A stretch of 64,000 bases of DNA, from the sequence record NZ_CP027239.1. The stretch is one strand, 5' to 3'. Source of the DNA: a plasmid. The position numbers and the translations under genes are program-made. Shown piece by piece: positions 4,980-37,267 of the stretch. The notes under the pieces are model-generated. The model saw nothing but the letters and a program-made list of their open reading frames with translations, ran no database searches and was not told where the DNA came from. How positions within the stretch are numbered: the stretch's first letter is position 1; each line of letters begins with the position of its first letter.

Positions 4980-7832
4980 TTAGCTCCAGATCGAAGGTTC
5001 TTCGTCGAACTCGTCGGCCGCATTCACCGGGCGCTCGGGTTCCACGTTCACAGGGTGAGAGCGTCCCGCCGGCGTAGACGCACGGCGTCCGCCGCGGGCC
5101 TTAGCTGTGGGCCCCGACGGTTCGTCCAGTGCGGGCGTGGTATCGGGACCAGGCAGAGTCGGTTGATCCTCGAGCTCGTCGTCCTGCGAGTCGAGCTCAG
5201 GAGCTTCGTCTGGGTGATCGGAGCCGGGGGCGTCGTCGCTGTCCGTGACCAGATACAGCTGGGCAGGTTCGGCGGAGGTAGCGGGCGCCGCAGCCTCGCT
5301 GCTGCCCTCGTCGAGGATCACCCATCGGGGTTCCTGGCCGCCGTCGGCGTTGGTGACGGTGATCTGCTGGTAGCCGAGGTTGCGTAGTCGTTCGCGGGTC
5401 ATGTCTTTGGTGCCTCGCAGCGTTTGCGCGGGGTCCCAGGGGCACGGCATCGGGTCGTCGGGCAGGAACATGACCTGCACCTGCCGGTACCCGTTCTTGG
5501 GGTCGTAGCCCCACGCTCGGCCCTTGGGGGTGCCGGCCTCCGGGAAGCGGGTGCCGTGGTTGGAGTTGAGGATCTGCTCGGACTCGTACTGGTCCAGGGG
5601 GCCGACGCCGAGTCGGAATCCGAGCTGGGAGCGCAGCTGGGTGGAGATGATCTTGGCGTCCGGCTTCTGGGCGGCGCACACGATGTTGGTTTCCAGGGCT
5701 CGGCCGAGCCGGGCGATTTTCTCGAGGCTGGCTCGGGCTTCGTCCTTGAGTTCCTCCGTCTCGCTGTCCGCGCCGCGGGCCAGGAAGTCGGCGATCTCGT
5801 CGAAGAACAGGATGACCCGCTTGGGCACCGGTCCGTATTGCGCTTCCAGTTCCGGTTGCTGGGCGTACTTGGCGCGCAGCAGGCCCAGGTTGCGGGCCTG
5901 GGTGCGGTTGAGCAGGGTTTGAGCGGCGTCCATGCTCGCTCGTGCCGCGCCGACAGCGGCGCAGATTTCTTCGTCGGTGGCGGCGAATCGGATCACCGAG
6001 GGGAACTCTGGGGTCCAGGTGAAGTCGGTGCGTTTGGGGTCGCACACGATCACCGACAGGACGTCGGGCAGGTACATCGCGTAGAACAGCACGATCGACA
6101 GGGCTACCGACTTCCCGGATCCCGTCTTGCCGCCGATCAGGCCGTGCGGAGTCTCTCCGAGATCCCAGTCCAGCCAGCCTCCGCCCTTCTGTGGGCCGAA
6201 CCGGAAAATCCCCTTGTGGGCGAGCGTGACCGCCTCGTCGAACTCGGGTGTGCCGGGCTCGGGGAAGGCCAATTCTGTCGGCAGTGGAGGCACCGCGGTG
6301 ATGGTGACCTTCCCCTTGGGGGCGTCCCACGAGTAGTGCCAGTCGTTGTCGGTGCTCAGGCTGTCCCAGTGGTCTTGGAACCCGTCGCGGGTGTCGCGGG
6401 CGTTGACGTCCATGGACCCGAACTTCACCTCGGCGACCTGCACCATCGCCGAGCCGTCGGCGCTGAGTTCGGGTTGCCACTCGAGGATGTCGCAGTCGAC
6501 GAAGTTCTTGCTGGAGCCGAACTTGGACTCGATCACGTTGCGCAGGTTGCGTTCGGTGACCTTGCGGCGGGCCTGCATGCTGCGGGACGGGTACGCGGTC
6601 GCCTCGAGCCGGGTGGTTCCGCCAGGCGTCCAGTCGTACAGCCAGGTCAGGCCCTGGTAGCTGGCCTCCATGGCGGTGTCGAAGTCGGACTCGAACTTGT
6701 TGCGGACGCGGCGATCGCCGAGGTTGAGGGTGTCGAAGTCGATGGACACCGCCACCGGGTAGTGCTCGGGGAACTTCTTGCCCTCGGGCATCCATCGGGT
6801 GACTTCGCAGTCGATGCTGGTGGTCTTGGTGGTGCGGATCATCGAGTAGACGTCGGCGATGATCTTGCGGGCGACGATTTTGCGGCGGGCCCGCAGGTCG
6901 TCGTCCGGGACGAGCTCGATCTGCAGCTCCCCGTCGGTGGACCAGTCGTAGACCCACACGCCGGGGCCGCGGACCTTGCGATCGAACTCGGCGGTGACAC
7001 GCTCACGAAACTGGGGGTCGGTGGCATCGAACCCGCCGTATGACCAGGTCACCTTCGTGGGGAACTGGTAGGTCGTGCCGTTGCGTTCGCTCTCGGTGCG
7101 CTCTTCCACGGTCAGGGCGAAGTCGTAGTCGCCGGCGTTGCGGGCAGCGTCGAACAGGGCCCGGTCGCCGAGCGATCGGGCCATCTTGCGGTCGTGGCTG
7201 CGCTGCCAGACGCGGGGGTCCTCAGCGGGCACGGCGGTGGCCGTCACGTGTGAGGCGTCAGCCCACTCGAAGATCCATTCCTGTCCGTCCGCGGGCGGAG
7301 GCGTGGCTTTCTGGATCGCCTGCTCGAGCGGCATCCGCAGATAGGGGGCGGTGGTGGCGGGGGAGTCGGGACCGACGGTGAGCGTGAAGGTGCTCGGCTT
7401 GGCCTTGGCGCCCCACTTGGCGACTGTGACGTAGGAGTCGGGGCTGACCGGAGTGGTGGCCGTGGACCTGGGTAGGGCCGCAGGGCGTTGCATCGCCGCG
7501 TAGATCGCGGCGGTGGCTTTGCGCCGTCTGGGCATCACCGCCCCGGCCCGGGACAGCGTGTAGAGCAGGAACACGGCCAGGGCGATGCCGGCCCACATGC
7601 GCGGCACGACGGCAAAGTACAGCGCCGCGATCAGTGCGGCCAGCATTGCCCAGTTCACCGCCACCAGCGGGACGGGGCCGAGCTTGGTGCCGTCCTTCAC
7701 CCAGGTCAGTGCAGCCCAGTCGCTGAGCAGCTGCTGCCCCTGCTTCTGCGCCTGCTGCTGGATCCTCGATGGGGGGCGTTTCCGGCCGCGAGCCATAGAT
7801 TCGCTGTCCTTCCGGTGGTGGGTCGGCCACAT
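4980..7832 (-). CDS. FtsK/SpoIIIE-family DNA translocase (TraB/TcpA-like conjugal DNA pump) with an N-terminal TM region and a tandem-repeat domain.
   Basis: 950 aa. Walker A GGKTGSGKS. Walker B ILFFDEIADF. FtsK-type arginine finger region QLGFRLGV. TM helices near the N-terminus. Four roughly 40-aa repeats with a W-x-[FY]-[DES]-W core. AGGTGGGA SD upstream of the ATG. Confidence 0.85.
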   Translation of the reverse strand: MWPTHHRKDSESMARGRKRPPSRIQQQAQKQGQQLLSDWAALTWVKDGTKLGPVPLVAVNWAMLAALIAALYFAVVPRMWAGIALAVFLLYTLSRAGAVMPRRRKATAAIYAAMQRPAALPRSTATTPVSPDSYVTVAKWGAKAKPSTFTLTVGPDSPATTAPYLRMPLEQAIQKATPPPADGQEWIFEWADASHVTATAVPAEDPRVWQRSHDRKMARSLGDRALFDAARNAGDYDFALTVEERTESERNGTTYQFPTKVTWSYGGFDATDPQFRERVTAEFDRKVRGPGVWVYDWSTDGELQIELVPDDDLRARRKIVARKIIADVYSMIRTTKTTSIDCEVTRWMPEGKKFPEHYPVAVSIDFDTLNLGDRRVRNKFESDFDTAMEASYQGLTWLYDWTPGGTTRLEATAYPSRSMQARRKVTERNLRNVIESKFGSSKNFVDCDILEWQPELSADGSAMVQVAEVKFGSMDVNARDTRDGFQDHWDSLSTDNDWHYSWDAPKGKVTITAVPPLPTELAFPEPGTPEFDEAVTLAHKGIFRFGPQKGGGWLDWDLGETPHGLIGGKTGSGKSVALSIVLFYAMYLPDVLSVIVCDPKRTDFTWTPEFPSVIRFAATDEEICAAVGAARASMDAAQTLLNRTQARNLGLLRAKYAQQPELEAQYGPVPKRVILFFDEIADFLARGADSETEELKDEARASLEKIARLGRALETNIVCAAQKPDAKIISTQLRSQLGFRLGVGPLDQYESEQILNSNHGTRFPEAGTPKGRAWGYDPKNGYRQVQVMFLPDDPMPCPWDPAQTLRGTKDMTRERLRNLGYQQITVTNADGGQEPRWVILDEGSSEAAAPATSAEPAQLYLVTDSDDAPGSDHPDEAPELDSQDDELEDQPTLPGPDTTPALDEPSGPTAKARGGRRASTPAGRSHPVNVEPERPVNAADEFDEEPSIWS

Positions 7833-10894: not shown

Positions 10895-11497
10895 TCAGAA
10901 CGGGGGTTCGTCGTCCTGGCCGCCGAAGCCTCCGCCCGCGTTGGCACTGGCGGCAGCGCCCCACGGGTCGTCGATCTGGTCAGATCCCTGACCACCTCCG
11001 AAGCCGCCACTCTGCTGGCCGCCGCCGAAGCCTCCCTCGGGCTGACCACCACCGAAGCCGCCCTGGCCACCTCCCTGGGGCTGGCCGCCGCCGAAGCCGC
11101 CACCCTGCTGGCCGCCGCCCTGGTTGCCGCGGCTGGTGCGGGTGACCTTGGCGGTGGCGTACTTGAGGGACGGGCCGACCTCGTCGACCTCGACCTCGTA
11201 GACGGTGCGCTTCTCGCCCTCGCGGGTCTCGTAGGAGCGCTGCCGCAGCCGGCCGTTGACGATGACGCGCATGCCCTTCTGCAGCGACTCGGCGACATTC
11301 TCCGCCGCCTGCCGCCAGACGTTGCAGGTGAGGAACAGGCCGTCGCCGTCTTCCCACTGGTTCGTCTGGGAGTTGAAGCGGCGCGGGGTGGAGGCGATGC
11401 GGAAGTTGGCGACCGCGGCGCCCGACGGGGTGAACCGCAGTTCCGGGTCGGCGACGATGTTGCCGATGACGGTGATGGGGGTGTCGCCCTGACTCAT
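10895..11497 (-). CDS. ssb: Single-stranded DNA-binding protein.
   Basis: 200 aa. N-terminal OB fold ([28 protein letters not shown]...[15 protein letters not shown]). Gly/Gln-rich tail. C-terminal acidic DDEPPF motif. Confidence 0.92.
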
Positions 11498-11651
11498 GGT
11501 GTCTCCTAGGTCGTGGGTTCAGGCGGTGAGCCGGTGTGCCGGTCTCGGGCAGGAGCATCGCACGACGATTTGCCGGTGTGGCGTCTCCGCGACCTGCACG
11601 TTGACGGGAATCGCCGGCAGAGTCTCGCTGGTCAAAGGCAAGGGAAGGGGA

Positions 11652-11863
11652 GGACCATCGCCGCTCGCGTGGGGAGCACGCGGCGCCGGCCTGGAGGATG
11701 CGCCGTTGCATGGGACCATCACCGCTCGCGTGGGGAGGACCCCCGTACAGTGCGTCGGGCTGGAGCTGGCCCCAGGACCATCCCCGCTCGCGTGGAGAGC
11801 ACTTGCCTCACCTGATGCAGACACCAGCTATCTCCGGACCGTCCACGCTCGCGTGGAGAGCAC
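11652..11863 (-). CRISPR. Orphan CRISPR mini-array: four 28-bp type I-E-like repeats and three 33-34-bp spacers. No cas genes in the window.
   Basis: Repeats at 11652-11679, 11713-11740, 11775-11802 and 11836-11863. Their reverse complements are GTGCTCCCCACGCGAGCGGCGATGGTCC, GTCCTCCCCACGCGAGCGGTGATGGTCC, GTGCTCTCCACGCGAGCGGGGATGGTCC and GTGCTCTCCACGCGAGCGTGGACGGTCC. Period is 61-62 bp. Each repeat carries 1-4 substitutions. Confidence 0.6.
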
Positions 11864-12020
11864 ACTCGCTACGCTGCGGGTTTTCTCCGTGTACGCGTGG
11901 TTGGGGATGGGTTCGGGATTGCTCCCGAACGGTGACCACCGCGGTGGCCTTCACGCTTCGCCGGTCCCGCGCCGTTCCCGCCTGATAGCGGTTCGGGCAC
12001 GGGGCCTCCACGTGCATTAA

Positions 12021-12043
12021 CGTCCCCACCCTCCGTGGGGACG
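12021..12043 (-). terminator. Perfect 9-bp stem hairpin (cgtccccac cctcc gtggggacg).
   Basis: Inverted repeat read directly from the sequence. Lies between the CRISPR array and the 12121..13761 gene. Confidence 0.3.
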
Positions 12044-12078
12044 GCCGCCCTCTCCGGCGGCTACGGCGCGGCCCGGGC

Positions 12079-12114
12079 CCCGACTATGCGGGCGGATGTG
12101 ACCACATAGTCGGG
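12079..12114 (-). terminator. 10-bp stem hairpin immediately downstream of the stop of the 12121..13761 gene.
   Basis: cccgactatg ... catagtcggg inverted repeat 7 nt after the stop codon. Confidence 0.4.
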
Positions 12115-12120
12115 TGCCTG

Positions 12121-13761
12121 TCAGGCGGGAATCTGCTCGGGGTACTCCTTGTAGGCGTCGTGCGCTGCCTTGGTGAACGCCTTGGGGTCGGCCAGACCCG
12201 CGCGCACCATGCGCTCGAACCGGTCGGCCGGGATCCTGCTCGACAGGTGGGTACCGAAGTTCTTCCGCAGGATCGGGTTCAGCTGATCAAGGTGCTGGGC
12301 CATGCCGATGGTCTCGATCAGCTCGTCCCACAGGCCCTGCAGGTCGTGGCGGTCGGCCAAGGTCTGCCCCTCCGGCACCGCCAGCGCAGAGTTCTCCACG
12401 GCGGGAGCAGGGGCCGGTGCCTGCTCCTGCGCGGGCTCCTGCGGTGCCGACTGCTCGGGCGGCGCCTGCTGTGCCGACTCCTGCTCGGGGACGTTGTGGC
12501 CGCCACCGTCGGGGCCGCCGCTGGAGGGCGCGCCGACGATGTCGGATGCCACTTCCAGGGCCAGCGCGTACAGGTCGCCGGCCGCCGCGGCGACCCGCTT
12601 GATCCATTCGGAGCTCTCGTGTCGATCCTCGACGTACTCGAGGACGAAGGGCTGCTCCGCCAGGGCGACCTGGGCCACCCACTTGGCGGCCTCGCGCCAC
12701 GACGGCTCGGTCTGGCGCTGGTAGCCCAGTGCGGTCTGCTGGACCCGGCTCGCGGCCCACATGAGCGGCTTGATCAGCTCGGTCGCCGCGCGGCTCAGGC
12801 GCTCATCGCCCAGCTGTGCCGCCTTCTCCGGGTCGGCGTAGGCGGCGCTCTGCACCAGGTCGAGGGCGTCCTTACGGGCCCAGCGGACGGACTGCACGAT
12901 GTACGAGGCCGGGTTGAGTCGACCGTCGAGGTTGACCAGCTCCCACGGCTTGCTTTCGACTGACCGCAGGCGCTGTACGGGCCGGTCAGTGTCGTCGCCC
13001 CGCATGATGCTGACGACCTGCTCGGCGATCTGGCGGGCATCGACTGCGCCGCCGGTCGGTGCGCCGGGCGCGGCTGCGGGGGAGGCGTTGTCGGAGCGGA
13101 CGATCGCGCCGCCGGTCTCGCCTGCCTCGGTGAAGATGCGGACCCAACCCTCGGGCGGTGTGGAGCCGTCGCGGTTGTGCCGGAACAGGTCCCACTCTTC
13201 GGGGTTGGTGGAGGCTTCCGCACTGATGACGTTGCGGGAAGGGTCGCCGGCGGGACCCACGACGGCGATCACGTTGGCGCAGTTCTCGCCCGTGATGTTC
13301 GAGTTGGCGCCGCTGCCGTCTGGCGCTGAGCCGCGCAGCACGCACATCGGCACGGTGTACGGGATGACCTCGCCGGACTTGTTCTTGTAGCGGCGGCGGG
13401 TCTCGATGGCCACGTAGACCGGTTCGCCATGCTCATGAGCCCAATGCAGCGCTCGGTGCACCTCCGAGCTCTCAACGGTGGAACCGGAGAAGTCGTGCCT
13501 GAGCTTCTTGTCGCTGCCGGTCTCCGAGGATGCGGCATCGAACGTCACCGACACCGAGCGCACCCCGCCGCGGCCCTCCCTGTCGGAGACCTTGATCTCC
13601 TTGACCAGAACGGACGTGAACTCGCGGACGTACACCTCGGGACGCACGGGCCGCTGCGTGACGTCGCCGTCAGCGGTGAGCTTGACCGCGACGGGCTTGG
13701 TCGGTGCGCTGGCGTAACCGATCCAGCTGGTCGGGTGGGTCTGGCGGGTGAAGGTCGTCAT
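12121..13761 (-). CDS. Hypothetical protein (546 aa). Context suggests a replication/recombination role.
   Basis: Good GAAGGAA SD. Codon usage matches the flanks. Gln/Pro/Ala-rich low-complexity linker near the C-terminus. No convincing match to Rep or relaxase motifs (an HWAHEH tract was considered and not accepted). Confidence 0.6.
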   Translation of the reverse strand: MTTFTRQTHPTSWIGYASAPTKPVAVKLTADGDVTQRPVRPEVYVREFTSVLVKEIKVSDREGRGGVRSVSVTFDAASSETGSDKKLRHDFSGSTVESSEVHRALHWAHEHGEPVYVAIETRRRYKNKSGEVIPYTVPMCVLRGSAPDGSGANSNITGENCANVIAVVGPAGDPSRNVISAEASTNPEEWDLFRHNRDGSTPPEGWVRIFTEAGETGGAIVRSDNASPAAAPGAPTGGAVDARQIAEQVVSIMRGDDTDRPVQRLRSVESKPWELVNLDGRLNPASYIVQSVRWARKDALDLVQSAAYADPEKAAQLGDERLSRAATELIKPLMWAASRVQQTALGYQRQTEPSWREAAKWVAQVALAEQPFVLEYVEDRHESSEWIKRVAAAAGDLYALALEVASDIVGAPSSGGPDGGGHNVPEQESAQQAPPEQSAPQEPAQEQAPAPAPAVENSALAVPEGQTLADRHDLQGLWDELIETIGMAQHLDQLNPILRKNFGTHLSSRIPADRFERMVRAGLADPKAFTKAAHDAYKEYPEQIPA

Positions 13762-18832: not shown

Positions 18833-19690
18833 ATGGACAACGGGATCACCCTGACCACCAACGGTCGGTCGTGGGTGTCGGTGGCCAACCCACTGCGCCA
18901 CGACACGATCGCCGGGCTGGCCCAGGCGCAAGCCAAGTACGACACCTCCCAGGTGTCGGCTCGATCCGGCGCTGTGGGCGTCATCGTCGGCGTCGCGGTC
19001 GGGCTGCTCGCCGTCCTGGTTGGCCTGCCGGCATTGCTGGCGGTCGTGTGCGGACTGGTGGCATTGCCGGTGGCCTGGCTGCTGACGTTCCGGCGACTGC
19101 GCTCTCGGGCGGCAGCGTTCGAGTCCACGCTGGCTGCCAACGCCGAAGGCCTGGGGCCACGACGGATCGTGCGGGGCGAGTTCCTTCCCGGGGCGTGTGC
19201 CGACGCCGCCGACCAGCTCGTCATCGGGACGGTGCAGATCCTGCAGTCCACCGCTTACCGGTGCGGGGCGCTGGGAGAGACCAGCTTTGTCTACGACGAG
19301 ATTCTCGACGCCACCTGGTCGCTGCTGCACAAGCTGCGCACCTACGAGCGGGAAGTGCGCGACATGGCGCGCATGGAGGAGCGGGCGTGCGATGAGCGCA
19401 CGCGCCGCGATCTCGCCACACTGGCAGACCGCATGAATCATGTGTGGTCCGAACAGCTACTGCCCTTGGTGGATGCCCACCGGGATCTGGTCCGGTCGGT
19501 CGCAGACCTCGACCGGTTCCTCGACACCCCGCATGCCAGGGACCACGGCAAGCAGTTGGCTGCAGCTGACGACTCTCCCCGCACGGCCGCAGACGACCTG
19601 GATGCGCTGACCGGGCGGGTCGCCGCAGCTCGTGACCGCGCGTTGGCCTACCGGTCCGGCTATCCCGACGCCGACACGACCAGCCCTTAG
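18833..19690 (+). CDS. Hypothetical membrane protein.
   Basis: 285 aa. GGAG SD. Two TM helices (AVGVIVGVAVGLLAVLVGLPALLAVVCGLVALPVAWLL). Confidence 0.55.
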   Translation: MDNGITLTTNGRSWVSVANPLRHDTIAGLAQAQAKYDTSQVSARSGAVGVIVGVAVGLLAVLVGLPALLAVVCGLVALPVAWLLTFRRLRSRAAAFESTLAANAEGLGPRRIVRGEFLPGACADAADQLVIGTVQILQSTAYRCGALGETSFVYDEILDATWSLLHKLRTYEREVRDMARMEERACDERTRRDLATLADRMNHVWSEQLLPLVDAHRDLVRSVADLDRFLDTPHARDHGKQLAAADDSPRTAADDLDALTGRVAAARDRALAYRSGYPDADTTSP

Positions 19691-20501: not shown

Positions 20502-22520
20502 ATGTGTCGATCCCAGCACGAACCCGGCGGGCCACGCTCCTGCCCGAAAGAGCCCGGCGACACCGTCGTCATGGCAACCCAGCGCGTCCAACAGCTCATC
20601 GACCGCAAACTCGAGCTCGAAGCCGAACTCGCACTGATCAACAGTGGCCTCCTCGACGGCGACCACACCCAGGCCACCCAGAAGCTGGCCGCGACGATCG
20701 AAGACGTCACCGCCGCTGACATCGCCCTGCGCGAGGCACACGCTGCCGCTGACGCCGTCGCCGCCCACAACGCCGCCCCTGGCAGCGCACTGGCGCACCT
20801 GAGCGACGACGAGCTACGCCAACACATCGACGACCGCGTCAGCGCTGACGAGTACACCGAACTCCTCGCCGTCCGCGATGCCGCCCGTGAGCATCGGGAT
20901 GCCACCGCGAAGGCCTACGCGGACGCCATGTCCGCCGCCGGCGACGACGACCCCGACGCCCTGCACAAGCTGGCGCAGGCCCGAACCGACGCCTACGACG
21001 CGCACTGCGCCTACCTGGAAGCCAACGCCCCGGTCGAGGAGTACAAGGACGTCACCGCCCAGGCGGCAGCCGAGCTCGGTCGCCGCAACCCGGTCCCCGA
21101 ATGGGAAGGCGAGCAGCTGGGGAACTGCTACAAGCAAGGCCACTACGAACCCGGAACGCGGGAGTGGCTCGAGGCTCGTCAGTCAGGGATCGGCGGATCA
21201 GATGTCGGGCCGATCCTGGGCATCGACCACCACGGGCGCAGCACCACCGACATCAAGAACTCCAAGCTGACCGAGATCAGCGACGCCGAACTCGAGGCGC
21301 AGGCGATCTCGCTGCAGTCCGCCAGTGGCCCGCTGGGCCGCGGGCACGCCTGGGAACCGGTCATCGTTCGGCAATTCGCCGACGACCACCCGGACCTGAC
21401 GGTGATGAGCGCCAAGGCCACCTGGCGCAACGACGACGTGCCGTACTCCGTCGTCAACGTCGACGCGGTGCTGTCCAGCGACGGCGGTGACACCGTCGAC
21501 GGGATCTTCGAGAGCAAGACCGGCTCCGACGCCGCCCAGTGGGCAGACGGGCCGCCCCCCGGATACCGGGCCCAGCTGGCTCAGTACCTGCACACCACCG
21601 GCCTCAAGTACGGGGTGATCGCTGCGCGCATCGACGACCGCGAGACCCGCTACTACCGGATCAGCGTGGACGAACCGATCGTCGAGGGCGGCAAGCCAAT
21701 CGCCGAGCACCAGGAGAAGCTGGCCTCCACCTGGAAGCGGTGGGAAGCCGAACGCCAGGACCCGCCCGGGCCGCGCCCCAACAAGGGCACCTTCTCCTGG
21801 GTGAAGAACCCCGGCACCGCCTCGTCTATGGAAAAGAACGCGACCACCGCACGCGACCTGGCCGCCTACCGCGGCATCAGCCAGGAGAAGGCCGCATCCC
21901 TGATCCAGGACGCCGTCTACGCGGGCAAGAACCCCGATCATGCGGTGCGGGACCTGTACGCGAGCTACGACCCGGCCACCGATCCCGACCGCCGCTACGT
22001 CACCGTCGACTTCGAAACCAACTCGCGCTCCGCCAGCAAGGGGCAGATCATCCAGACTGGTGTGGTCGTCACCGACGGCCGCGGCAAAGTCGTCGAGCGG
22101 ATCGACTCCCTGCACGGCATCGACCCCCGCATCCGAGACAGCCAGGGCACCGGCGCCACCAGCGTCCACGGCATCACCCCGGCCATGGTCGATGGCCACA
22201 CCCCGTTCGACCAGTCCGTGCAGCGCAAGCGGCTCGCGACACTGCTGGCCGACCCCAAGACCACGCTGGTGGCGCACAACGCGAGCTTCGAGAAGTCGTG
22301 GATCCGCTCCCACGGCATCCCCACCCCTCGCATCATCGACACGATGCGCCTGCGGCAGCGGTTCGACCACGGCACCGTCGGCTCCACCAACGCTGACTTC
22401 TGCCAAGCCAACGGCGTCGACTACGTCAACGGCCACAACGCGGCTGCTGACGCCGACATGACCAGCCGGGCCCTGCACGGGTTCATGCGCCGGCTGTTCC
22501 ACACGCCCCCCGGCTTCTGA
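20502..22520 (+). CDS. Fusion protein: YqaJ-like (lambda-exonuclease-fold, PD-(D/E)XK) nuclease domain plus a C-terminal DnaQ-like DEDDh 3'-5' exonuclease domain. An alternative start lies at 20571.
   Basis: YqaJ motifs GIGGSDVGPILG, HAWEPV and GIFESKTG in the central region. Exo I DFETNS, Exo II HNASFE and Exo III GHNAAADADMTS in the C-terminal 180 aa. Confidence 0.65.
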   Translation: MCRSQHEPGGPRSCPKEPGDTVVMATQRVQQLIDRKLELEAELALINSGLLDGDHTQATQKLAATIEDVTAADIALREAHAAADAVAAHNAAPGSALAHLSDDELRQHIDDRVSADEYTELLAVRDAAREHRDATAKAYADAMSAAGDDDPDALHKLAQARTDAYDAHCAYLEANAPVEEYKDVTAQAAAELGRRNPVPEWEGEQLGNCYKQGHYEPGTREWLEARQSGIGGSDVGPILGIDHHGRSTTDIKNSKLTEISDAELEAQAISLQSASGPLGRGHAWEPVIVRQFADDHPDLTVMSAKATWRNDDVPYSVVNVDAVLSSDGGDTVDGIFESKTGSDAAQWADGPPPGYRAQLAQYLHTTGLKYGVIAARIDDRETRYYRISVDEPIVEGGKPIAEHQEKLASTWKRWEAERQDPPGPRPNKGTFSWVKNPGTASSMEKNATTARDLAAYRGISQEKAASLIQDAVYAGKNPDHAVRDLYASYDPATDPDRRYVTVDFETNSRSASKGQIIQTGVVVTDGRGKVVERIDSLHGIDPRIRDSQGTGATSVHGITPAMVDGHTPFDQSVQRKRLATLLADPKTTLVAHNASFEKSWIRSHGIPTPRIIDTMRLRQRFDHGTVGSTNADFCQANGVDYVNGHNAAADADMTSRALHGFMRRLFHTPPGF

Positions 22521-23783: not shown

Positions 23784-24331
23784 TGAGCGCCGGCCGGAAT
23801 GCTGGGTCGTCCCTGCTGGACCGAGTGACCACGGTCAATGAGGACGGTCAGCGGCAGCTGGCACCGTTTGTGATGCCTCTGTTCGTGATCGTCGTGCTCA
23901 GTTTCATTCTGCTGTTCACCCTGGGCCGGTGCGCTGTCGACACCGTTCACTCCATCACTGAGGAGCCCGAGCAGCGCCCGATGGTGACCCCGTCGTTTGA
24001 GCTCCCCGCGCCCCGCGGCTGCGGCGAAGTCAGTGACACCGTGATGGCCGCTATCGAGCAGGAGCTGCGGGATCCACGCATGCGGGTGGCGCGCGCGTAC
24101 TCGCACGAGCGTGACGATGGGGTGCAGGCGATCGGGGTGACGATTCAGCGGGACGATCGCGCGATCCAGGCGGTCGCAGCGATCTTCGCAGCCGACCACA
24201 CCGGCAAGCTGTTCTCCCTGTCATCGGATGCGCGGCAGATGTCGCGGTTGCCAGACGGTCGAGAGACGCTGCGGATGACCCCGGTCGACGATGAGGCGCA
24301 GATAGTGAACTCGTGCCTGCGGGACCAGTGA
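23780..24331 (+). CDS. Hypothetical membrane-anchored protein.
   Basis: ATGA overlap with the upstream gene. N-terminal TM helix (FVMPLFVIVVLSFILLFTL). Confidence 0.5.
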   Translation: MMSAGRNAGSSLLDRVTTVNEDGQRQLAPFVMPLFVIVVLSFILLFTLGRCAVDTVHSITEEPEQRPMVTPSFELPAPRGCGEVSDTVMAAIEQELRDPRMRVARAYSHERDDGVQAIGVTIQRDDRAIQAVAAIFAADHTGKLFSLSSDARQMSRLPDGRETLRMTPVDDEAQIVNSCLRDQ

Positions 24332-24436
24332 CACACGCGGGCAGCACGCCCGTTCCGTCACCGTGACGTTAGGGCAGGTCAGCGTGGGGACTGGACGTGC
24401 TGCCGCTTCTGCTGGGGGCTCGTCGCCGCTCTCGCA

Positions 24437-25000
24437 CTACTCCAGTTCGGAGGCCGGCACGTCGCTCATCAGCGTGTCGACCGGTTCAACAACCCCGTCA
24501 GAGACAGGGTCGGAGTCGGCAGTGGGGGCTTCGATCTCGCCGCGTCGAGTCAGTACTCGCCAGGCCCGCTGGGCACGGGGCTTAGCTTCTTCTTCTGCCC
24601 AGCGGCGCACGCGCGGCCTGGTCGCAACGGCGGCTCCACCGACGAGGACTAGCGCCGTCACCCCGAGCGCGACCGGGGCCCAGGAGCGGGAGTGCGGCGG
24701 CATCTCCGCCTGACCCTCGAACTCACCCTCGACGTCGATCAGCTCGACAGGTTCGCCACTTGAACCGGCATCGGAGGCGGAAGCTGCGATGTCGGCGTTG
24801 AGGGCCTCGGCGATGCTCTCGTCCCACGTTCGGACGGTCCAGGCGCGGTTGTAAGACTGGTAGCCGCCGGTTCCACGCTCGTAGTAGGTCTCTGAACCGA
24901 ACTGCTTGCCCTTGTCGGTCAAGCCGTAGTCGCCGGGCCCTCCGTCCAGGTATCCGTGCTCGAAAAGAAGCGCATTCATCTCGCGCGCCGTCTTTCCCAT
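24437..25000 (-). CDS. Hypothetical protein with a C-terminal TM helix (start uncertain; the track ORF extends to 25033).
   Basis: Chosen start MGKTAREMNALLFEHGYL is preceded by a GGTAGAGG SD-like sequence. Borders the low-GC noncoding region. Confidence 0.4.
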   Translation of the reverse strand: MGKTAREMNALLFEHGYLDGGPGDYGLTDKGKQFGSETYYERGTGGYQSYNRAWTVRTWDESIAEALNADIAASASDAGSSGEPVELIDVEGEFEGQAEMPPHSRSWAPVALGVTALVLVGGAAVATRPRVRRWAEEEAKPRAQRAWRVLTRRGEIEAPTADSDPVSDGVVEPVDTLMSDVPASELE

Positions 25001-25246
25001 GCCTCTACCGATGTCCTGAGCGGATCTTCCCATAAAGAAATAGTACTCGTACGCGATGGGGAGCCCAGCGGTTCACCTCGCGCGAGCGCCCGGCGCGAGT
25101 CGGCGGCAGCCACCGACACCGCCAGCTACGCTGGAAGCCTGCCAGAATGACGGCACGGCACTGACACCGGACGGGCACGCTGACAATCTTGTCGGCAGCC
25201 AGGATGGCACACCGAAGCGACGTTGCCGCTGCTAGTCCTGCCCCTT

Positions 25247-25272
25247 TGATGGATAATGTTTATTATCCATCA
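25247..25272. promoter_or_regulatory. 26-bp perfect palindrome (11-bp arms, 4-bp spacer) in an AT-richer noncoding region. Candidate operator or origin hairpin.
   Basis: TGATGGATAAT GTTT ATTATCCATCA, read directly. Confidence 0.35.
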
Positions 25273-25318
25273 CGCTGCTGACCCTTCCCGAGATGCCGTC
25301 GGGCCGCCACCGTGTCGG

Positions 25319-25378
25319 TTGCCAAACAGTTTGTCAGTTTGCCAAACCGGTGTCAGCAGCGTGCCACGAGTTTGTCAG
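25319..25378. repeat. Iteron-like direct repeats: TTGCCAAAC x2 and GTTTGTCAG x2, plus an inverted TGGCAAGC copy just downstream (25385-25400).
   Basis: Repeats at 25319-25327, 25339-25347, 25329-25337 and 25370-25378. Confidence 0.3.
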
Positions 25379-25589
25379 TGGTGGCTGCAAGTCTGGCAAG
25401 CAATACGGCGCGGATGTAGCGTCCCCGATCGAGCTAGCGACCTGTTGAGTTCGACGCAAGAGTCGGATCTGTCTTCCCCTGACCGCGCGATGCCCTCAAT
25501 CTTCTTGACGAGCCGCCAATCCATTCCCTTTTCAGGATCGGTAGACGGATACGCGCCGCGCCTACGGAGAAAGGGCACGGCGGCCCTGG

Positions 25590-26346
25590 CTATTTCTTGA
25601 CGCCGCTGAGGTTCTTCTTGATGAGAATCTGGGCTACAAGGTGTCCAGACCCGCCGTTGAGTCCGGCGCCGGGGTGCGTGGAGGCACCGACGTGCCAGAC
25701 TCGGGGCACGTGCGTCTGGTGCGAGGCGTGCGGCAGTGGTCGCCATAGGAGGTTCTGGTCCAGCTCCGACGAACCGCTGTACGGGTCGCCCTTGACGGCA
25801 TTGGGGTTAGCTGCGGCCAGCTCCGGTGGAGTGATGGTGTCGATTTTGAGGATGGTAGAGGTCAAGCCTGGCGCGTGCTCCTCGAGCCTGTTCAGGACGC
25901 GGTCAACATAGGCTGCGGTCGTTTCTTGTGACCAGGTGCCGTCGACATCGATGGTTCCTCCGGCGTCGCCACGCGGTTGCCAGGGTGCTTCCTGCAGTTG
26001 AAGCCAGAGGGCACCTTTGCCTTCGGGCACACGGTCCGGATCCAGGATCTGCTGGCGGCCGACAACGATTGTCGGTTCGGTGGGAAGGAGGCCGGCGTCA
26101 GCTTGCGCGCATGCGATTCCGGTGCTCGCCGAGCCATCGCTGACGTGAACGAGTGGAACGTCGGAAAGTCGTTCGTCCGCGAACTTCAGGGGCCGGTCCA
26201 GGGCGACATGAATTTGGATGGCCGCCCGACCGTACCGGTACTGCTGTGCTTCTCGCTGGATTCTCGGTGGGACGTCACTGAGCAGCGTCCCGTACAGTGC
26301 TTGCGGTGTGACGCTGGCGAGTACAGCGTGACGTGCGCTCACTAGC
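25590..26346 (-). pseudogene. C-terminal fragment of a CrtI/phytoene-desaturase-family FAD oxidoreductase gene interrupted by an IS481-family element.
   Basis: C-terminal GASTHPGAGLNGGSGHLVAQ motif. Joins in frame with 27435..28282 once the IS and one TSD copy are removed. The first 32 codons of track ORF 25590..26441 are IS-derived. Confidence 0.6.
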
Positions 26347-27428
26347 TGTACTGACCACGGACGTTGTGTCACTGGTCGGCATGGCGGGCTGACATAAGGA
26401 AGACCTCCGTGTGAGGTGTGAAAGCGACAAAGCAACCACACTCACAACGGAGGTCTTCATGTCCCACGGTAACGCCCCGCTGACTCCGACGGGCAGGCTG
26501 CGTCTGGCCCGGTGTGTCGTCGAGGACGGCTGGACCCGTGTCCGTGCTGCCGAGCGGTTCAACGTCTCGGTGGGCACCGTGCGCAAGTGGGTCAACCGGT
26601 ATCGCGAGTACGGCAAGGACGGCATGGTCGATCGCTCCAGCCGGCCCCACCACAGCCCGGGCCGGACACCGCGGCGGCGGGAGCGGCGGGTGATCGGCCT
26701 GCGCGTGTCCCGCCGGTGGGGGCCGGCCCGGATTGCCTACCACCTGGGCATGCAGCCCTCGACCGTGCACAAGATCCTGTCCCGCTACGGCTGTCTGCGC
26801 CTGTCGTTCACCGACCCGGCCACCGGCGCCCCGGTGCGTGCCGGCAAGCGGCAGGTGCGCCGCTACGAGCACGAGGCACCGGGCGATCTGGTGCACGTGG
26901 ACATCAAGAAGCTCGGCCGCATCCCCGATGGCGGTGGTCACAAGGTCCTCGGCAGAGCCAAGGGAAAGCGCAACAGCAAGCGTCGAATGGGCTACTGGTA
27001 CATCCACAACGCTGTCGATGACCACTCGAGGCTGGCTTATAGCGAGCTGCTGGAAGATGAGCGCAAGGAGACCGCGGCCGAGTTCTGGAAGCGGGCCGAG
27101 GCCTTCTTCGCCGATGCCGGTATCACCGTGCGCCGGGTCCTGACCGACAACGGCAGCTGCTACCGCTCCCATGCCTTCGCCGACGCCCTCGGAACCGAGG
27201 TCACGCACAAGCGCACTCGCCCGTACCGGCCGCAGACCAACGGCAAAGTCGAGCGCTACAACCGCACGATGCTCGAGGAATGGGCCTACGCCGAACCCTA
27301 TTCCTGCGAAGCCGACCGCGCGGCACGTCTACCGGCCTTCCTGCACCACTACAATTTCCACCGCGGCCACACCGCGCTAAGAGGCGCCTCACCCGCAGAC
27401 CGCGTACACAACCTGCGTGGACAGTACA
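26347..27428 (+). mobile_element. IS481-family insertion sequence (1082 bp) flanked by the 6-bp target-site duplication ACTAGC (26341-26346 and 27429-27434).
   Basis: Terminal inverted repeats TGTACTGACCACG (left) and CGTGGACAGTACA (right) match 12/13. The NCTAGN-type target duplication is typical of IS481. The transposase stop codon TAG is supplied by the duplication. Confidence 0.75.
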
Positions 27429-27433
27429 ACTAG
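26459..27433 (+). CDS. IS481-family DDE transposase.
   Basis: 324 aa. GGAGG SD. N-terminal HTH (GWTRVRAAERFNVSVGTVRKWVNRYRE). DDE integrase core with HVDIKKLGRIP...VLTDNGSCYRS...RPQTNGKVERYNRTM. Confidence 0.85.
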   Translation: MSHGNAPLTPTGRLRLARCVVEDGWTRVRAAERFNVSVGTVRKWVNRYREYGKDGMVDRSSRPHHSPGRTPRRRERRVIGLRVSRRWGPARIAYHLGMQPSTVHKILSRYGCLRLSFTDPATGAPVRAGKRQVRRYEHEAPGDLVHVDIKKLGRIPDGGGHKVLGRAKGKRNSKRRMGYWYIHNAVDDHSRLAYSELLEDERKETAAEFWKRAEAFFADAGITVRRVLTDNGSCYRSHAFADALGTEVTHKRTRPYRPQTNGKVERYNRTMLEEWAYAEPYSCEADRAARLPAFLHHYNFHRGHTALRGASPADRVHNLRGQYN

Positions 27434-27434
27434 C

Positions 27435-28282
27435 CCTTTGTCGGTAACGACTCCGGTAGCCTGCTGGTCGGCCACGGTGATGGATTCAGCAGTTCTGCCG
27501 GTCATCACCGTTACTCCGAGCTCGGCGAACAGGCTCTCGAAGGCGGCCACGAAGTTTCCTGCGCCGCCAGCCACGATGGGCAGACCAAATCCGTGCATCG
27601 TGGCGGCGAGGACCGGGATCATCATCCCGCCGGAAGCGTTGTCGGGCGACATCCCGGCGTGCAGTAGCCATGGCGCCCAGATTTGGTCCGCTTCGGTACC
27701 GTTGAACCGTGCCCTTGTGAATGACCGCCCGCTGGTCAGTGCGTCGCGGGCGAGCATTTCAACACCGTCGAGTTTCTGCTTGCGCAGTGCATCGAAACCC
27801 AGCTTCGCAAGGGTCTTCTTCGATCGCAGGTCTGACCCGAGGGCCCCGAACACTGTGCCTGAGCGTGCCCCCATCTCATCCAGCATCGCCACGTACGCAT
27901 CTTGGTCGTGGGCTTCGGCGAACCCTTCGGCCGTGCGCTGGGGGTCTCGATAAGCGACCGAGGTAAGGTCGCGGGCGACGCTCCCAGTGAGGGCAGCGTC
28001 GGTGTTTCGATACTCGAGTCCGTGCGCATGGAGTTTGTCGCCGATTGCGGCGTAGGCGCCGCCGGAGACGAAAAGCGGATGCCAAGAAGAATAGATGTCA
28101 TGTTCATATCCGGGCAGCGTTCGTTCGCCTGAGGCAATGAATCCACCTAGATTCTCATTGCGTTCAATGATCGCTACACGCCAGCCAGCCAAACCGAGCT
28201 CGGCGGCCGCGACGAGGCCATTTACGCCAGATCCGATCACAACTGCGTCAAAAGGTTCCATGATCTGTGCTCTCGCTTCCAC
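27435..28282 (-). pseudogene. N-terminal fragment of the IS-disrupted CrtI-family FAD oxidoreductase gene.
   Basis: Rossmann dinucleotide motif DAVVIGSGVNGLVAAAELGLAGWRVAIIERNENLGG. The last 14 codons of track ORF 27389..28282 read into the IS. Confidence 0.6.
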
Positions 28283-28802
28283 TCGTTCCGCTGGCTCCAG
28301 GCTGCGTGTTGCAACCTCGGGCTGACTCTCCTTGGCGACGTCGGAGCGCCTGTTGAATCAGGCGGGCTGAGCACTCGACATGTGATGGGTACCGTTCAAC
28401 CGCTCGTGCCCGACGCGTGTTCGATTGCTGATCGTCAAGTGCAGGAGTTCTGTGTTCAATGATCGGGCACCGGCGGCGTTCCCGCGGTCGATTTCGTGCA
28501 TCGGGTCGGTCTTCGGCGGAAAGTGGCCGGAGCGCCGCGGAATTTGGCTGTGACGCGCATCTCCAGGGATCCTAACGTGAGATGCAGCGCACTGGCCTGC
28601 GGGTTTAAGAGGAGCCGAGTTCGGTCAGAAGAAGCTATTCCTGATTATGCAGACGGTGAAACACCGCATAGGAGGAATTGGCCATGGCAAAAGTGCCTAC
28701 CGCACGCAGTGATCATCGCTCTCTGGCACCGAGGAACGGCAGTCGCTCGCGGCGTCGCGGTCGCGGACCACTTGGTGGACCGTCCGCTGTGTGCCTGGGT
28801 GC

Positions 28803-29123
28803 TCAGTAAGCGGCGCCGAGCTCAATTAGGAGTACGCCGCCGACAATGAGGATGACGCCGAGCCCCATCAACCAGGTAAGGGGCTCCCTGAACAGGAAAC
28901 GGCTGATGATCGCCGTCAACGCCACCCCAGAGGCGGCCCAAATTCCGTAGGCGACACCGAGAGCCATGCCGGCGGCCAACGCCAACGACAGCATCGTGAA
29001 CGCCAGTAAGTACCCGACGGCCACGCCCGCGTACCAGAGCTTTTTGTCCACAGCGATGCGCAGTGAGATAGTGCCGAACACCTCAAATGCGATGGCGGCG
29101 ATGAGAAAGAGCCAGGTCATCGG
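28803..29123 (-). CDS. SMR-family small multidrug/guanidinium-type efflux subunit, second subunit of a pair.
   Basis: 106 aa from the internal ATG (MTWLF...). Four TM helices. Conserved membrane-embedded Glu in TM1 (AFEVFGT). Confidence 0.75.
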   Translation of the reverse strand, partial: PMTWLFLIAAIAFEVFGTISLRIAVDKKLWYAGVAVGYLLAFTMLSLALAAGMALGVAYGIWAASGVALTAIISRFLFREPLTWLMGLGVILIVGGVLLIELGAAY

Positions 29124-29482
29124 GCCACCTCGCCCTTCTTGTTCTTGTGTCCCATCTGGGCGCCGAGTTCCACACACAGCACTCCACCGATTACGACGAC
29201 GGTGCCGATACTCATCAGCGTGGTCAGCGGCTCATTGAAAAACACCATCGACAACAATGCCGTCAACGCGACCCCGGATGCGCCCCAAATACCGTAGGCG
29301 ACACCAAGGGCCATTCCTGTGCGCAGTACCAGAGCCAGGAACACGAACGCCCCCACATAGCCGATCACGACGACCGCATAGAGAGCAGGCGCATTAAGCG
29401 CGGCCTTCAGTGACAGCGATCCCGCGACCTCCAATAGGATCGCGCCGACCAGCAACAGCCACCCCTTCGCTTGTCGGCTCAC
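29117..29482 (-). CDS. SMR-family efflux subunit, first subunit of the pair.
   Basis: 121 aa with four TM helices. LLEVAGSLSLK with a conserved Glu. Overlaps its partner by 7 nt. Confidence 0.75.
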   Translation of the reverse strand: MSRQAKGWLLLVGAILLEVAGSLSLKAALNAPALYAVVVIGYVGAFVFLALVLRTGMALGVAYGIWGASGVALTALLSMVFFNEPLTTLMSIGTVVVIGGVLCVELGAQMGHKNKKGEVAR

Positions 29483-30006
29483 TTTGCCCCACCTTCGTCC
29501 AGCAATCTCATCGCAGCCGAATACACTGCGTCTTCCTCATCCCCGCGAACCGCCTGAATGCCAAGTCCTTTGTTGAACCACGCCCCGTCAGCCAGGAGCC
29601 TGGCGGCCCGCAGCGCACCACGCTGCCGGGGTGTCCCTGTGATCTCGGTCCCGAACCACGGGTCCATGCGTTGCGTCCACTGGGCTGCCAGCATTTCCCT
29701 CAGTCGGACGTCGACCAGCAGCGCAAGGTCGCTCTGGTCGAACTCTCCCGTCACCGCGTGCTCCACGTAGGCTCGCAATCTTTCGGCTGGGCTGCTGTCC
29801 TCTCCTGCCTGCTTGCGCAGCACTGTCAACCACCGATCTGCGATCCGGTCCACCACCGCCAGCACCAATGCCTCCTTAGTTTCAAAGTGGTGCACTACCC
29901 CTGGCTTCGTCAGGCCAGCCTCGCGCGCAACAGCATCGATCGCGAACGGCTCACCACGGCGCAGCACTTCGATCGCATCATCAAGAATCTCCGGTTTCGT
30001 GGCCAT
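29479..30006 (-). CDS. TetR/AcrR-family transcriptional regulator.
   Basis: N-terminal HTH (AIDAVAREAGLTKPGVVHHFETKEAL). ATGA coupling to the downstream SMR gene. Confidence 0.8.
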   Translation of the reverse strand: MATKPEILDDAIEVLRRGEPFAIDAVAREAGLTKPGVVHHFETKEALVLAVVDRIADRWLTVLRKQAGEDSSPAERLRAYVEHAVTGEFDQSDLALLVDVRLREMLAAQWTQRMDPWFGTEITGTPRQRGALRAARLLADGAWFNKGLGIQAVRGDEEDAVYSAAMRLLDEGGAK

Positions 30007-30021
30007 GCCACCACCCTACCG

Positions 30022-30031
30022 ACCATATGGT
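30022..30031. promoter_or_regulatory. Palindrome ACCATATGGT nested in a larger imperfect inverted repeat (CTACC...GGTAG), about 20 nt upstream of the tetR start. Candidate TetR operator.
   Basis: Read directly. Its position relative to tetR-smr is typical for autoregulated TetR operators. Confidence 0.3.
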
Positions 30032-30154
30032 AGGTCAGAGAGCTTCGACCGTCGTGGGCTCCAGATAGCCGGGTCGGAGTCGCTGTTGAGGATCGTCCAA
30101 CGCGACAGCGATCCTCTGCTCGTGGACAGAAACGCGATCCGACAATGAGCCGAC

Positions 30155-31171: not shown

Positions 31172-31281
31172 CCTTGATTGGAGTGATGAGTATCACGCAT
31201 CAGTGTAGTCGCGGGTGTCGCCGCCATCAGGTGACTGGCCTCCCTTTGTTAAACGGGCAGGCCGCGGGACTGCCCGGGGTG

Positions 31282-32910: not shown

Positions 32911-33016
32911 CAAGATGTCTCTGTTCTGCGCTGGTGACCGCAGGGCGGTCGACGGTGGTGAATGTACTGGGTGCTCTGGCGTGGCTGCGCTGGGGCAGCC
33001 ACGCCAGAGGCTGGTA

Positions 33017-33877: not shown

Positions 33878-33996
33878 GGGATTCCTTTCGTTGCCGTGGC
33901 GGCTTGCCACGGATTGGTCCGCAGAATGCGAACCGCGTGTAGTGGATGAGTGTGCTTAGTTCGGTTAGAGGGCCGGCCGCTTTTTCCGGCCCGTGG

Positions 33997-35490: not shown

Positions 35491-35572
35491 GGCGTTCTTC
35501 CTTTTCGCAGGACGCCTCACCCGACTGCGCCTCGTAGCGCGCAGTCGAGTAGAGGTGTGGCGGTGGGTCGCT

Positions 35573-37108: not shown

Positions 37109-37267
37109 CTGGTTTCTCCTGCAAATTCGGCGAATCCGGCAGGGTACGGGTGGGCCGGAGCCGAGTCGCTCGCTCAGGGAACGACCAGCGTCAGCTCACC
37201 CGCACCCTGCAGGTCGGTCGAGTGGGGTGGAGCACAGCGGGCTGGTGGTAAGCCCGCAGGCTGGGAG

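Follow-up and report, generated by a model that had tools for sequence, protein, structure and literature searches.

A short CRISPR array beside ssb on an actinobacterial conjugative plasmid, probably the remnant of a type V-N (Cas12n) locus

Organization of the locus

The stretch of DNA analysed here (the window, 64 kb in full) was taken from the plasmid sequence record NZ_CP027239.1; it has a G+C content of 67% and represents an actinobacterial conjugative element of the type IV secretion system (T4SS) type. The subject of this report is a short CRISPR array located between ssb and a gene for a protein of 546 amino acids (aa), together with the truncated nuclease gene next to it. The array and both flanking genes run in the same direction. 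The features of the locus are, in order of position:

10895..11497 (−), ssb, downstream syntenic anchor (Pfam SSB, E = 3e-30, and synteny)
11652..11863 (−), CRISPR array of four repeats and three spacers, transcription sense on the minus strand
11652..11679 (−), repeat 4, terminal, GTGCTCCCCACGCGAGCGGCGATGGTCC
11680..11712 (−), spacer Sc, CATGCAACGGCGCATCCTCCAGGCCGGCGCCGC
11713..11740 (−), repeat 3, GTCCTCCCCACGCGAGCGGTGATGGTCC
11741..11774 (−), spacer Sb, TGGGGCCAGCTCCAGCCCGACGCACTGTACGGGG
11775..11802 (−), repeat 2, GTGCTCTCCACGCGAGCGGGGATGGTCC
11803..11835 (−), spacer Sa, GGAGATAGCTGGTGTCTGCATCAGGTGAGGCAA
11836..11863 (−), repeat 1, proximal to the predicted trans-activating CRISPR RNA (tracrRNA), GTGCTCTCCACGCGAGCGTGGACGGTCC
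11864..12049 (−), 3′ remnant of cas12n, a conserved tracrRNA-like structured block of 185 nucleotides (nt) directly upstream of the array
12050..12120 (−), spacer region with a hairpin (inverted repeat I12) 3′ of the 546-aa gene, upstream boundary of the cas12n deletion
12121..13761 (−), 546-aa gene without assigned function, upstream syntenic anchor

The array consists of four copies of a 28/29-nt repeat with start-to-start distances of 61, 62 and 61 nt. A search of the 64 kb with the repeat consensus at ≤3 mismatches returned these four sites and no others; 100 shuffles gave an expectation of 0.00. The spacers measure 33, 34 and 33 nt and each is unique within the window; the array has the properties by which CRISPR arrays are generally recognized (at least three repeats of 23–50 nt, a regular period and unique spacers of similar length). 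A reading made earlier from the letters alone (the sequence-only reading) had listed the four 28-nt repeats, their spacing, the three spacer sequences and the place of the array on a conjugative element, with ssb on one side and the 546-aa gene on the other, and the repeat and window searches bore it out on all of these. It had also allowed that the periodicity might stem from a repetitive protein-coding gene; the array is not a repetitive coding region, because no open reading frame (ORF) with coding-like GC3/GC2 statistics was found across 11498–12120.

Syntenic relatives with an intact cas12n gene

The 546-aa gene has a graded set of homologues, found in the gene order DnaB, 546-aa homologue, variable segment, ssb. 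The members are listed below with the percentage identity of their 546-aa homologue and the contents of the variable segment.

L069, L070 and L071, same metagenome series: 86%; 147 nt with one partial repeat before ssb
L072: 78%; N-terminus (first codons) of a TnpB-like ORF, then the contig end
L073: 67%; intact 521-aa ORF and two repeats before ssb
L074 (Dietzia sp. 179-F 9C3 NHS): 64%; intact 500-aa ORF and four identical repeats GCGCTCCCCACGCGAGCGGGGATGGTCC with a period of 61 nt

In L072, L073 and L074 the TnpB-like ORF follows the 546-aa homologue, with its position and orientation alike in all three. Between L073 and L074 the ORF is 75% identical, DnaB 75% and the neighbour gene 68%; the divergence of the ORF tracks that of the backbone and therefore indicates long vertical inheritance under constraint.

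The PADLOC Cas12u4 model matched the proteins of L074, L073, L082 and L078 over its full length (E ∼ 1e-180; 4e-181). The best PDB match of the ORF was 9j09_A (E = 3e-88, versus 3e-32 for ISDra2 TnpB), which is the complex of RdCas12n with single guide RNA (sgRNA) and DNA (PMC12216341). NCBIfam returned generic TnpB models only. The RuvC D/E/D residues are present in the ORF. Cas12n is the effector of type V-N, formerly called V-U4 or C2c9, and has 400–700 aa with a disordered C-terminal tail (PMC12216341, PMC11641405). Further homologues were found on plasmids of Mycobacterium, Streptomyces, Micrococcus and Cellulosimicrobium, and all six of them are followed by an array ∼100–170 nt after the stop codon; these arrays hold three to eight or more repeats, with a period of ∼61 nt in five of the six, the exception being the Mycobacterium sp. 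JS623 locus.

The window array belongs to a type V-N locus, because its syntenic relatives carry cas12n and a like array at the same spot. The sequence-only reading, which had called it an orphan type I-E-like mini-array, had mis-typed it: synteny and the 3′ end of cas12n at 12049–11864 identify the locus as type V-N. An Insertion Sequence (IS) interpretation of the block upstream of the array was also considered, namely an IS605/IS607 tnpB inserted at the leader–repeat junction with the CRISPR repeat as its omega-RNA guide (a homing or anti-CRISPR device). It was dropped because all six plasmid homologues are associated with arrays and the protein matches the Cas12u4 and RdCas12n models; comparison of copies for an IS left end or a transposon-associated motif gave no consistent boundary. 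The closest full-length homologue, from Dietzia sp. CQ4, was uninformative, its 3′ end being interrupted and the contig ending there.

Two further kinds of eroded locus were seen. In L069 (7651–7678; likewise in L070 and L071) the whole cas12n–array module has been lost, leaving one partial repeat with A at position 10, TTGCTCCGCACGCGAGCGGTGA, fused to the ssb-proximal trailer; this L069-type sister plasmid shares the ENA sample ERZ27247962 with the window element. L047 (Ga0194138_10001008, reverse complement, 1–1285) has six repeats and five spacers, the spacers all unlike those of the window, behind a TnpB-like ORF (Pfam OrfB_IS605 and Cas12f1-like_TNB) whose N-terminus is truncated by an IS3-type element, represented by a remnant of its integrase. 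This truncation is a second, independent inactivation of cas12n in the same community. The last repeat of L047 is a single nucleotide different from repeat 1 of the window, so a single shared ancestral array is possible and both arrays may be parts of one that was longer; repeat 2 of the window is identical to L047 repeat 5. The backbone of L047 is a different conjugative one, with an 886-aa VirB4-like protein, a 389-aa TcpC and a cutinase.

The cas12n remnant and a predicted tracrRNA

What is left of the nuclease gene in the window is its last 60 codons (12048–11869), which encode the Cas12n C-terminal tail in frame and end in a TAG stop codon 8 nt before repeat 1. Homology to the cas12n-bearing loci L073 and L074 begins only at 12049, so codons 1 to ∼440 have been deleted; on the far side, homology to the end of the neighbour gene in L072 stops at 12111. 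A tblastn search of the window with Dietzia I-E Cas proteins and one Cas12n found no intact cas or cas12n gene (best E = 0.87). The earlier statement that no cas gene occurs in the 64 kb therefore stands for intact genes and fails for the 60-codon remnant that adjoins the array. A Cas12n effector gene stands beside the array in L073 and L074, and no cas1 or cas2 is part of the locus, as in type V-N.

The 185-nt block that contains the remnant is 96% identical to L047 and 82–86% identical to L073 and L074, where it forms the 3′ end of the cas12n ORF, and is far more conserved than the protein. RNAalifold placed 55 base pairs in it, four with compensatory changes, among only four sequences. In the block a conserved GNRA hairpin, GTTCGGGAGCAATCCCGAAC, precedes CCATCCCC, a segment complementary to repeat positions 18–25; in six of six repeat families a predicted anti-repeat of 6–8 nt lies directly 3′ of the conserved hairpin and is complementary to repeat positions 18/19/20–25. 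No Rfam family was matched at the gathering threshold in the window or at E ≤ 1 in the relatives. In published Cas12n systems the tracrRNA overlaps the ORF and makes up 170 nt of the RdCas12n sgRNA (PMC12216341).

No two of the four window repeats are alike, and they differ in how they fit this predicted anti-repeat. Repeat 2, which precedes Sb, is the only one with perfect pairing, while repeat 1 has two mismatches and repeats 3 and 4 have one each; two of the three repeats that precede a spacer are therefore mismatched in the pairing segment.

Spacer targets and protospacer-adjacent motif

Spacer Sa matches the Dietzia kunjamensis plasmids pDK313-83 and pDK2035-69 exactly over 29/29 nt (E = 6e-5 against 7.3 Gb), with AA before the target; counted from the end proximal to the protospacer-adjacent motif (PAM), 28 nt are exact and AAG precedes the target. 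The target covers the ribosome-binding site and GTG start of an 'SCO6880 family' gene in a T4SS operon, a transfer operon which this gene shares with an ATP/GTP-binding protein, a T4 coupling protein and a MobF relaxase. Spacer Sb matches plasmid pI of Dietzia sp. DQ12-45-1b and D. kunjamensis CP155440.1 with 21 nt exact from the PAM-proximal end (27/33 overall); its target is intergenic and also preceded by AAG. Both matches therefore span a 20-nt guide, the length used by the 40-nt CRISPR RNA (crRNA) part of the RdCas12n sgRNA (PMC12216341). The two spacers are directed at competing elements of the same kind, conjugative plasmids of Dietzia, as the sequence-only reading had proposed in general terms. 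Phage and viral-contig targets were found for none of Sa, Sb and Sc.

The spacers of the intact relatives point to targets of the same kind. All PLSDB matches of their spacers are Dietzia plasmids, a spacer of L073 matches the plasmid targeted by Sa, and spacer 3 of L074 matches T4SS ATPase genes of Dietzia. The targets of L074 spacers 3 and 1 follow AAC, and all four targets, with those of Sa and Sb, conform to a 5′-AAN PAM. Published PAMs of Cas12n are 5′-AAN, with AAG for AcCas12n and AAC for RdCas12n (PMC12216341, PMC11641405). Canonical I-E spacers of the same community have their perfect protospacers after AA in four of four cases, and because the local I-E system shares the PAM, AAN does not separate type V-N from I-E. 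A match of L047 spacer 5 to a Mycobacterium plasmid (29/33) was not counted, because it has mismatches in the seed and lacks the AA PAM.

The first spacer of the intact Dietzia Cas12n array, CACGCAGCGTAGGGAGTGCGCTCCCCACGCGAG (L074, 10140–10172), is a copy of the junction between cas12n 3′ end and repeat 1 of the window/L047 type. At L074's own junction the corresponding sequence has AA before it. It looks as if a cas12n–array junction, a rival's or its own, had been captured as a spacer.

The window element is itself a target. Protospacers for Dietzia-type I-E arrays of the same metagenome series lie at 5533–5565, 5359–5387 and 19378–19410 of the window. Spacer 4 of L051 matches the window element at 33/33 in the FtsK-like gene with PAM AAC; spacer 14 of L055 matches the sister contig L004 at 33/33 and the window at 27/29, and L046 and L052 hold a 29/33 match. 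From these matches it follows that CRISPR of the community's hosts targets the window element. The same I-E arrays also carry 33/33 spacers against pDK313-83, the plasmid targeted by Sa.

Relation to type I-E arrays

On the minus strand the window repeats are 2–4 substitutions away from the type I-E repeat GTGCTCCCCGCGCGAGCGGGGATGGTCC, repeat 1 having four, which places them by sequence in the I-E repeat family. A degenerate pattern (the four copies plus the G10 variant) matched 34 genome loci, all of them long arrays (up to 74 copies, period 61 nt) in Gordonia, Tsukamurella, Saccharothrix, Amycolatopsis and others, and all with GTGCTCCCCGCGCGAGCGGGGATGGTCC and a variable 29th base. In Gordonia sihwensis the array directly follows cas7e-cas5e-cas6e-cas1-cas2, and arrays of the canonical repeat adjoin cas3-cse1-cse2-cas7-cas5-cas6e-cas1-cas2 in Dietzia and Gordonia. 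The JGI metagenome Ga0194136, which also holds the relative at 86%, contains a 22-kb contig with a complete I-E operon and array; the Cas6e of this operon is 100% identical to an NCBI protein labelled 'MULTISPECIES [Dietzia]' which accompanies arrays of 47–91 repeats in several Dietzia assemblies. Ga0194137 and Ga0194138, both of which hold the window element, contain long canonical I-E arrays. From the repeat matches and these arrays it follows that the repeat is I-E-like and that the element occurs together with Dietzia whose I-E system matches and looks cognate. The sequence-only reading had named a missing I-E repeat family and a host without cognate Cas as grounds for refutation, and these do not apply. 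The window array and the A10 repeat variant themselves were absent from the genome-contig and viral-contig collections searched.

These likenesses would fit an orphan I-E mini-array, kept by the plasmid to turn the host's Cascade and Cas3 on plasmids that compete with it: the repeat sequence, spacers of 32–33 nt with an AAG PAM like the perfect protospacers of the community's I-E arrays, and complete Dietzia I-E loci in the same JGI series. The use of host Cas proteins in trans by orphan arrays of plasmids has already been proposed (PMC9071438). The other properties of the locus make this explanation improbable. The syntenic relatives place the array directly downstream of cas12n and not of I-E cas genes. 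Upstream of the window array, in place of the longer conserved leader of canonical I-E arrays, stands the 3′ end of cas12n, and only the last ∼11 nt resemble, by visual comparison, the I-E leader end GGTCAnnAAGT. Nor are the repeats identical to those of the host, each being 2–4 positions off, unlike those of characterised viral mini-arrays (PMC11656645).

Repeats of type I-E form a characteristic hairpin of a 7-bp stem and a tetraloop, which is bound by Cas6e. For the canonical repeat the hairpin was calculated at −15.1 kcal/mol. Repeat 2 alone among the window repeats retains the canonical topology, and weakly so (−6.7 kcal/mol); repeat 1 folds in a register shifted by one, and in repeats 3 and 4 the hairpin is lost, so that the canonical structure is missing from three of the four. 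The G10A substitution, which breaks a pair of the stem, is present in 10/10 repeats of the window and L047 mini-arrays and in 4/4 repeats of L074 and in 0 of >500 Dietzia-type I-E repeats. Because of this distribution G10A is a lineage marker and not random damage. The sequence-only reading had left open whether the array was a decaying fragment or a maintained mini-array. Decay is evident, since the four repeats all differ and only one of them keeps pairing and hairpin.

Some resemblance to I-E arrays extends to the leader end. In the Cas12n arrays of other actinobacterial plasmids (L078–L083 and L075) the sequence ..GGTCAnnnAGT stands just before repeat 1, similar to the I-E leader end ..GGTCAAGAAGT; the counterpart in the window, GCGTAGCGAGT, bears a weak resemblance. 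This motif may be a shared integration signal for the I-E Cas1–Cas2. L075 (1440–1700) carries a Cas12n-like homologue (65% identity) in an unrelated context, then the I-E-leader-like end, one full repeat of another I-E family, GTCGGACCCGTACGCGCGGGGATGAGCCC, a partial second repeat and a tRNA-like sequence; it may be another eroding locus.

Proposed history of the locus

We consider it probable that the array is the remnant of a type V-N (Cas12n, formerly V-U4) locus of a conjugative-element family, whose host is most likely Dietzia, that the nuclease gene was deleted, and that the spacers are directed against rival Dietzia conjugative plasmids. In the intact relatives, the 546-aa gene and ssb flank a cas12n gene of ∼500 aa, whose ORF encodes a predicted structured tracrRNA at its 3′ end and is followed by a short array. 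According to published Cas12n work, the nuclease with tracrRNA and crRNA cleaves double-stranded DNA (dsDNA) beside a 5′-AAN PAM under a guide of ∼20 nt. With spacers against transfer genes of other Dietzia conjugative plasmids and against their intergenic regions, the system would have served competition between plasmids, and new spacers may have been supplied in trans by the Cas1–Cas2 of the host I-E system. Acquisition in trans is suggested by a repeat nearly identical to that of the host I-E system, by spacers of 32–33 nt together with a variable 29th base derived from the PAM, and by a PAM common to both; no statement on I-E-supplied spacer acquisition for Cas12n was met in the literature searched, the original description of Cas12n lying outside that search. 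In the window, an internal deletion took cas12n codons 1 to ∼440 and left the 185 nt predicted to encode the tracrRNA with four repeats, which have gathered substitutions since. Most likely the window locus is now vestigial and could act only with Cas12n provided in trans or, less likely, with the Cascade of a host I-E system.

Several points weigh against this history. The tracrRNA and crRNA of the window locus are predictions from homology and structure. The anti-repeat co-varies with the family repeat, and only 4/720 reassignments score equally, for a segment that was chosen by eye; a generic test of tracrRNA:repeat duplex energy gave results no better than shuffles. For Sc no significant target was found in phages, plasmids, viral contigs or the window. 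Dietzia as the most likely host of the plasmid family is deduced from best homologues, spacer targets and co-occurrence. Conservation of the array across the seven other contigs with the identical 546-aa gene was considered as a sign of constraint and proved uninformative, because the contigs are 99.4–100% identical; it speaks neither for constraint nor for neutrality. Finally, the deletion kept almost exactly the tracrRNA-coding block and the array, which could reflect selection for activity in trans and not chance.

This last point leads to a guide cassette that lacks its effector and still works, in which tracrRNA and array are transcribed and loaded by the Cas12n of a co-resident plasmid or of the chromosome, giving the element its targeting at no nuclease cost. 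The sparing of precisely the conserved block and the array would be expected, Sa and Sb still match extant Dietzia plasmids over the full 20-nt guide with the right PAM, anti-repeat pairing is intact in the repeat before Sb, and related cas12n genes exist in Dietzia genomes. However, no intact cas12n was found in the same samples, where the L047 copy is the one truncated by the IS3-type element; of the three repeats that stand before a spacer, two have mismatches where they would pair; and a scan for sigma-70 promoters and terminators detected nothing, although it is ill-suited to actinobacteria, whose promoters are poorly predicted. We give such a cassette a small chance of being real.

That the degenerate I-E-like repeats are transcribed as an RNA decoy (Racr-like), titrating Cas6e or Cascade subunits and shielding the plasmid from the host I-E system, is very unlikely: the concept is established for phages (PMC11656645), the repeats are host-like but imperfect, and Dietzia-type I-E arrays of the same metagenome series hold 33/33 spacers to the FtsK-like gene of the element, but positive evidence is absent, most repeats are without the hairpin that binding by Cas6e would need, and spacer lengths, PAM-consistent targets and cas12n ancestry already account for the structure.

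The remnant history can be extended, tentatively and with more doubt than belief, to Cas12n loci on plasmids of Dietzia and other actinobacteria in general. These loci might imitate the host I-E system in its repeat, spacer length and AAN/AAG PAM so that the host Cas1–Cas2 loads plasmid-chosen spacers into a class 2 array; a fixed change that breaks the stem, G10A in the window, might keep the transcripts off Cas6e and Cascade; and effector-less cassettes of tracrRNA and array might persist as shareable guide libraries for Cas12n acting in trans. If true, this would be a sharing of adaptation across classes, I-E with V-N, in plasmid warfare, including spacers against a rival's cas12n–array junction (L074 spacer 1).

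Most of the interest of the finding lies in this possible cross-talk of Cas12n with I-E and in the three-way conflict seen in the metagenomes. With a Cas12n array that shares its repeat and PAM with the host I-E system, cross-class acquisition of spacers in trans is directly testable in Dietzia. The I-E arrays of hosts from the same metagenome series target both the window plasmid and its rival, a small conflict of three parties that lends itself to experimental reconstruction.

Comparison with known systems

The loci of the relatives resemble those of AcCas12n and RdCas12n (Chen et al. 2023, as far as it is cited in PMC11641405; PMC12216341) in the full-length match of their protein to the Cas12u4 model (E ∼ 1e-180), the predicted structured RNA encoded by the 3′ end of the ORF, the short array that comes next, the absence of cas1 and cas2, the AAG/AAC PAMs and the hosts among Actinobacteria. 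Cas12n cleaves dsDNA and does not process its own precursor crRNA (PMC12216341, PMC11641405). The window differs from these examples in that the nuclease gene is reduced to the last 60 codons and the repeats are decaying; location on a conjugative plasmid and spacers against rival plasmids are points left unaddressed in the Cas12n literature searched. Cas12n, so far studied mainly as a genome-editing tool, is seen here in a natural setting, on conjugative plasmids and with spacers against the transfer genes of rivals.

Plasmids with orphan arrays have been described, and it is an open question whether such arrays are remnants or use host Cas proteins in trans (PMC9071438). The window array resembles those described by Pinilla-Redondo et al. 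(PMC9071438) in being short, without cas genes, on a conjugative element and with spacers that match other plasmids; unlike them, it can be traced to the deletion of an adjacent V-N effector gene, of which relatives keep intermediate states. Orphan arrays of this kind are common, and the window shows one concrete route to them, the loss of an adjacent miniature type V nuclease with the stages kept in sister plasmids.

Plasmid type IV-A3 systems acquire spacers through the host type I-E Cas1–Cas2, according to the citation of Benz et al. 2024 (bioRxiv 10.1101/2023.06.23.546257) in PMC11656645. To the extent described there, they are like the present loci in being plasmid-borne, lacking an adaptation module, aiming at other plasmids and being compatible with host I-E adaptation. 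They are class 1 and have DinG, whereas the effector here is the class 2 Cas12n and adaptation in trans is suggested by the identity of the repeat, the length of the spacers and the PAM.

Viral mini-arrays (Medvedeva et al. 2019, PMC6858448) also consist of few spacers on a mobile element, directed against related competitors. They have host-identical repeats and no effector remnant, whereas the window repeats are 2–4 positions off and the array has its origin in an effector locus belonging to the element itself. Type V-M (Cas12m) is similar in having a miniature effector derived from TnpB, one enriched on plasmids and directed against them (PMC11656645); it has a TTN PAM, no tracrRNA and a degenerate RuvC (PMC11641405), whereas the Cas12n loci described here have AAN, a predicted tracrRNA embedded in the ORF, intact D/E/D residues and Cas12u4 as the best PADLOC model.

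The conjugative element and additional observations

The window encodes a VirB4-like AAA_10 ATPase, TcpC, a multidomain cell-wall hydrolase, an FtsK-like protein, DUF932, DnaB and a tyrosine integrase; no relaxase or oriT was identified on the element. About 21 kb of the window (2121–23045, including the array) are 100% identical to contig JALXPR010000043.1 of GCA_025147785.1, and assemblies from ENA, JGI and Logan hold the stretch at 99.4–100% identity, in every case with the identical array. The nearest annotated plasmids are from Rhodococcus and Corynebacterium, with only 30–45% amino-acid identity.

Tandem repeats of 27–30 nt in the part of ssb that encodes the C-terminus (10980–11130) encode the Gly-rich tail of SSB (GGFGGGQ..); they are ordinary coding repetition, unrelated to the array. 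A cargo segment at 24000–39000 has a lower G+C content (60–65%) and holds an IS481-type transposase (26411–27433), an AraC regulator, an NmrA-like reductase, an AMP-binding enzyme and a phosphotriesterase; it is followed by the tyrosine integrase (39304–40362). At 20502–22520 the window encodes a 672-aa fusion of a YqaJ-like recombinase/exonuclease with an RNase_T (DEDD) exonuclease, which is kept in the sister contigs.

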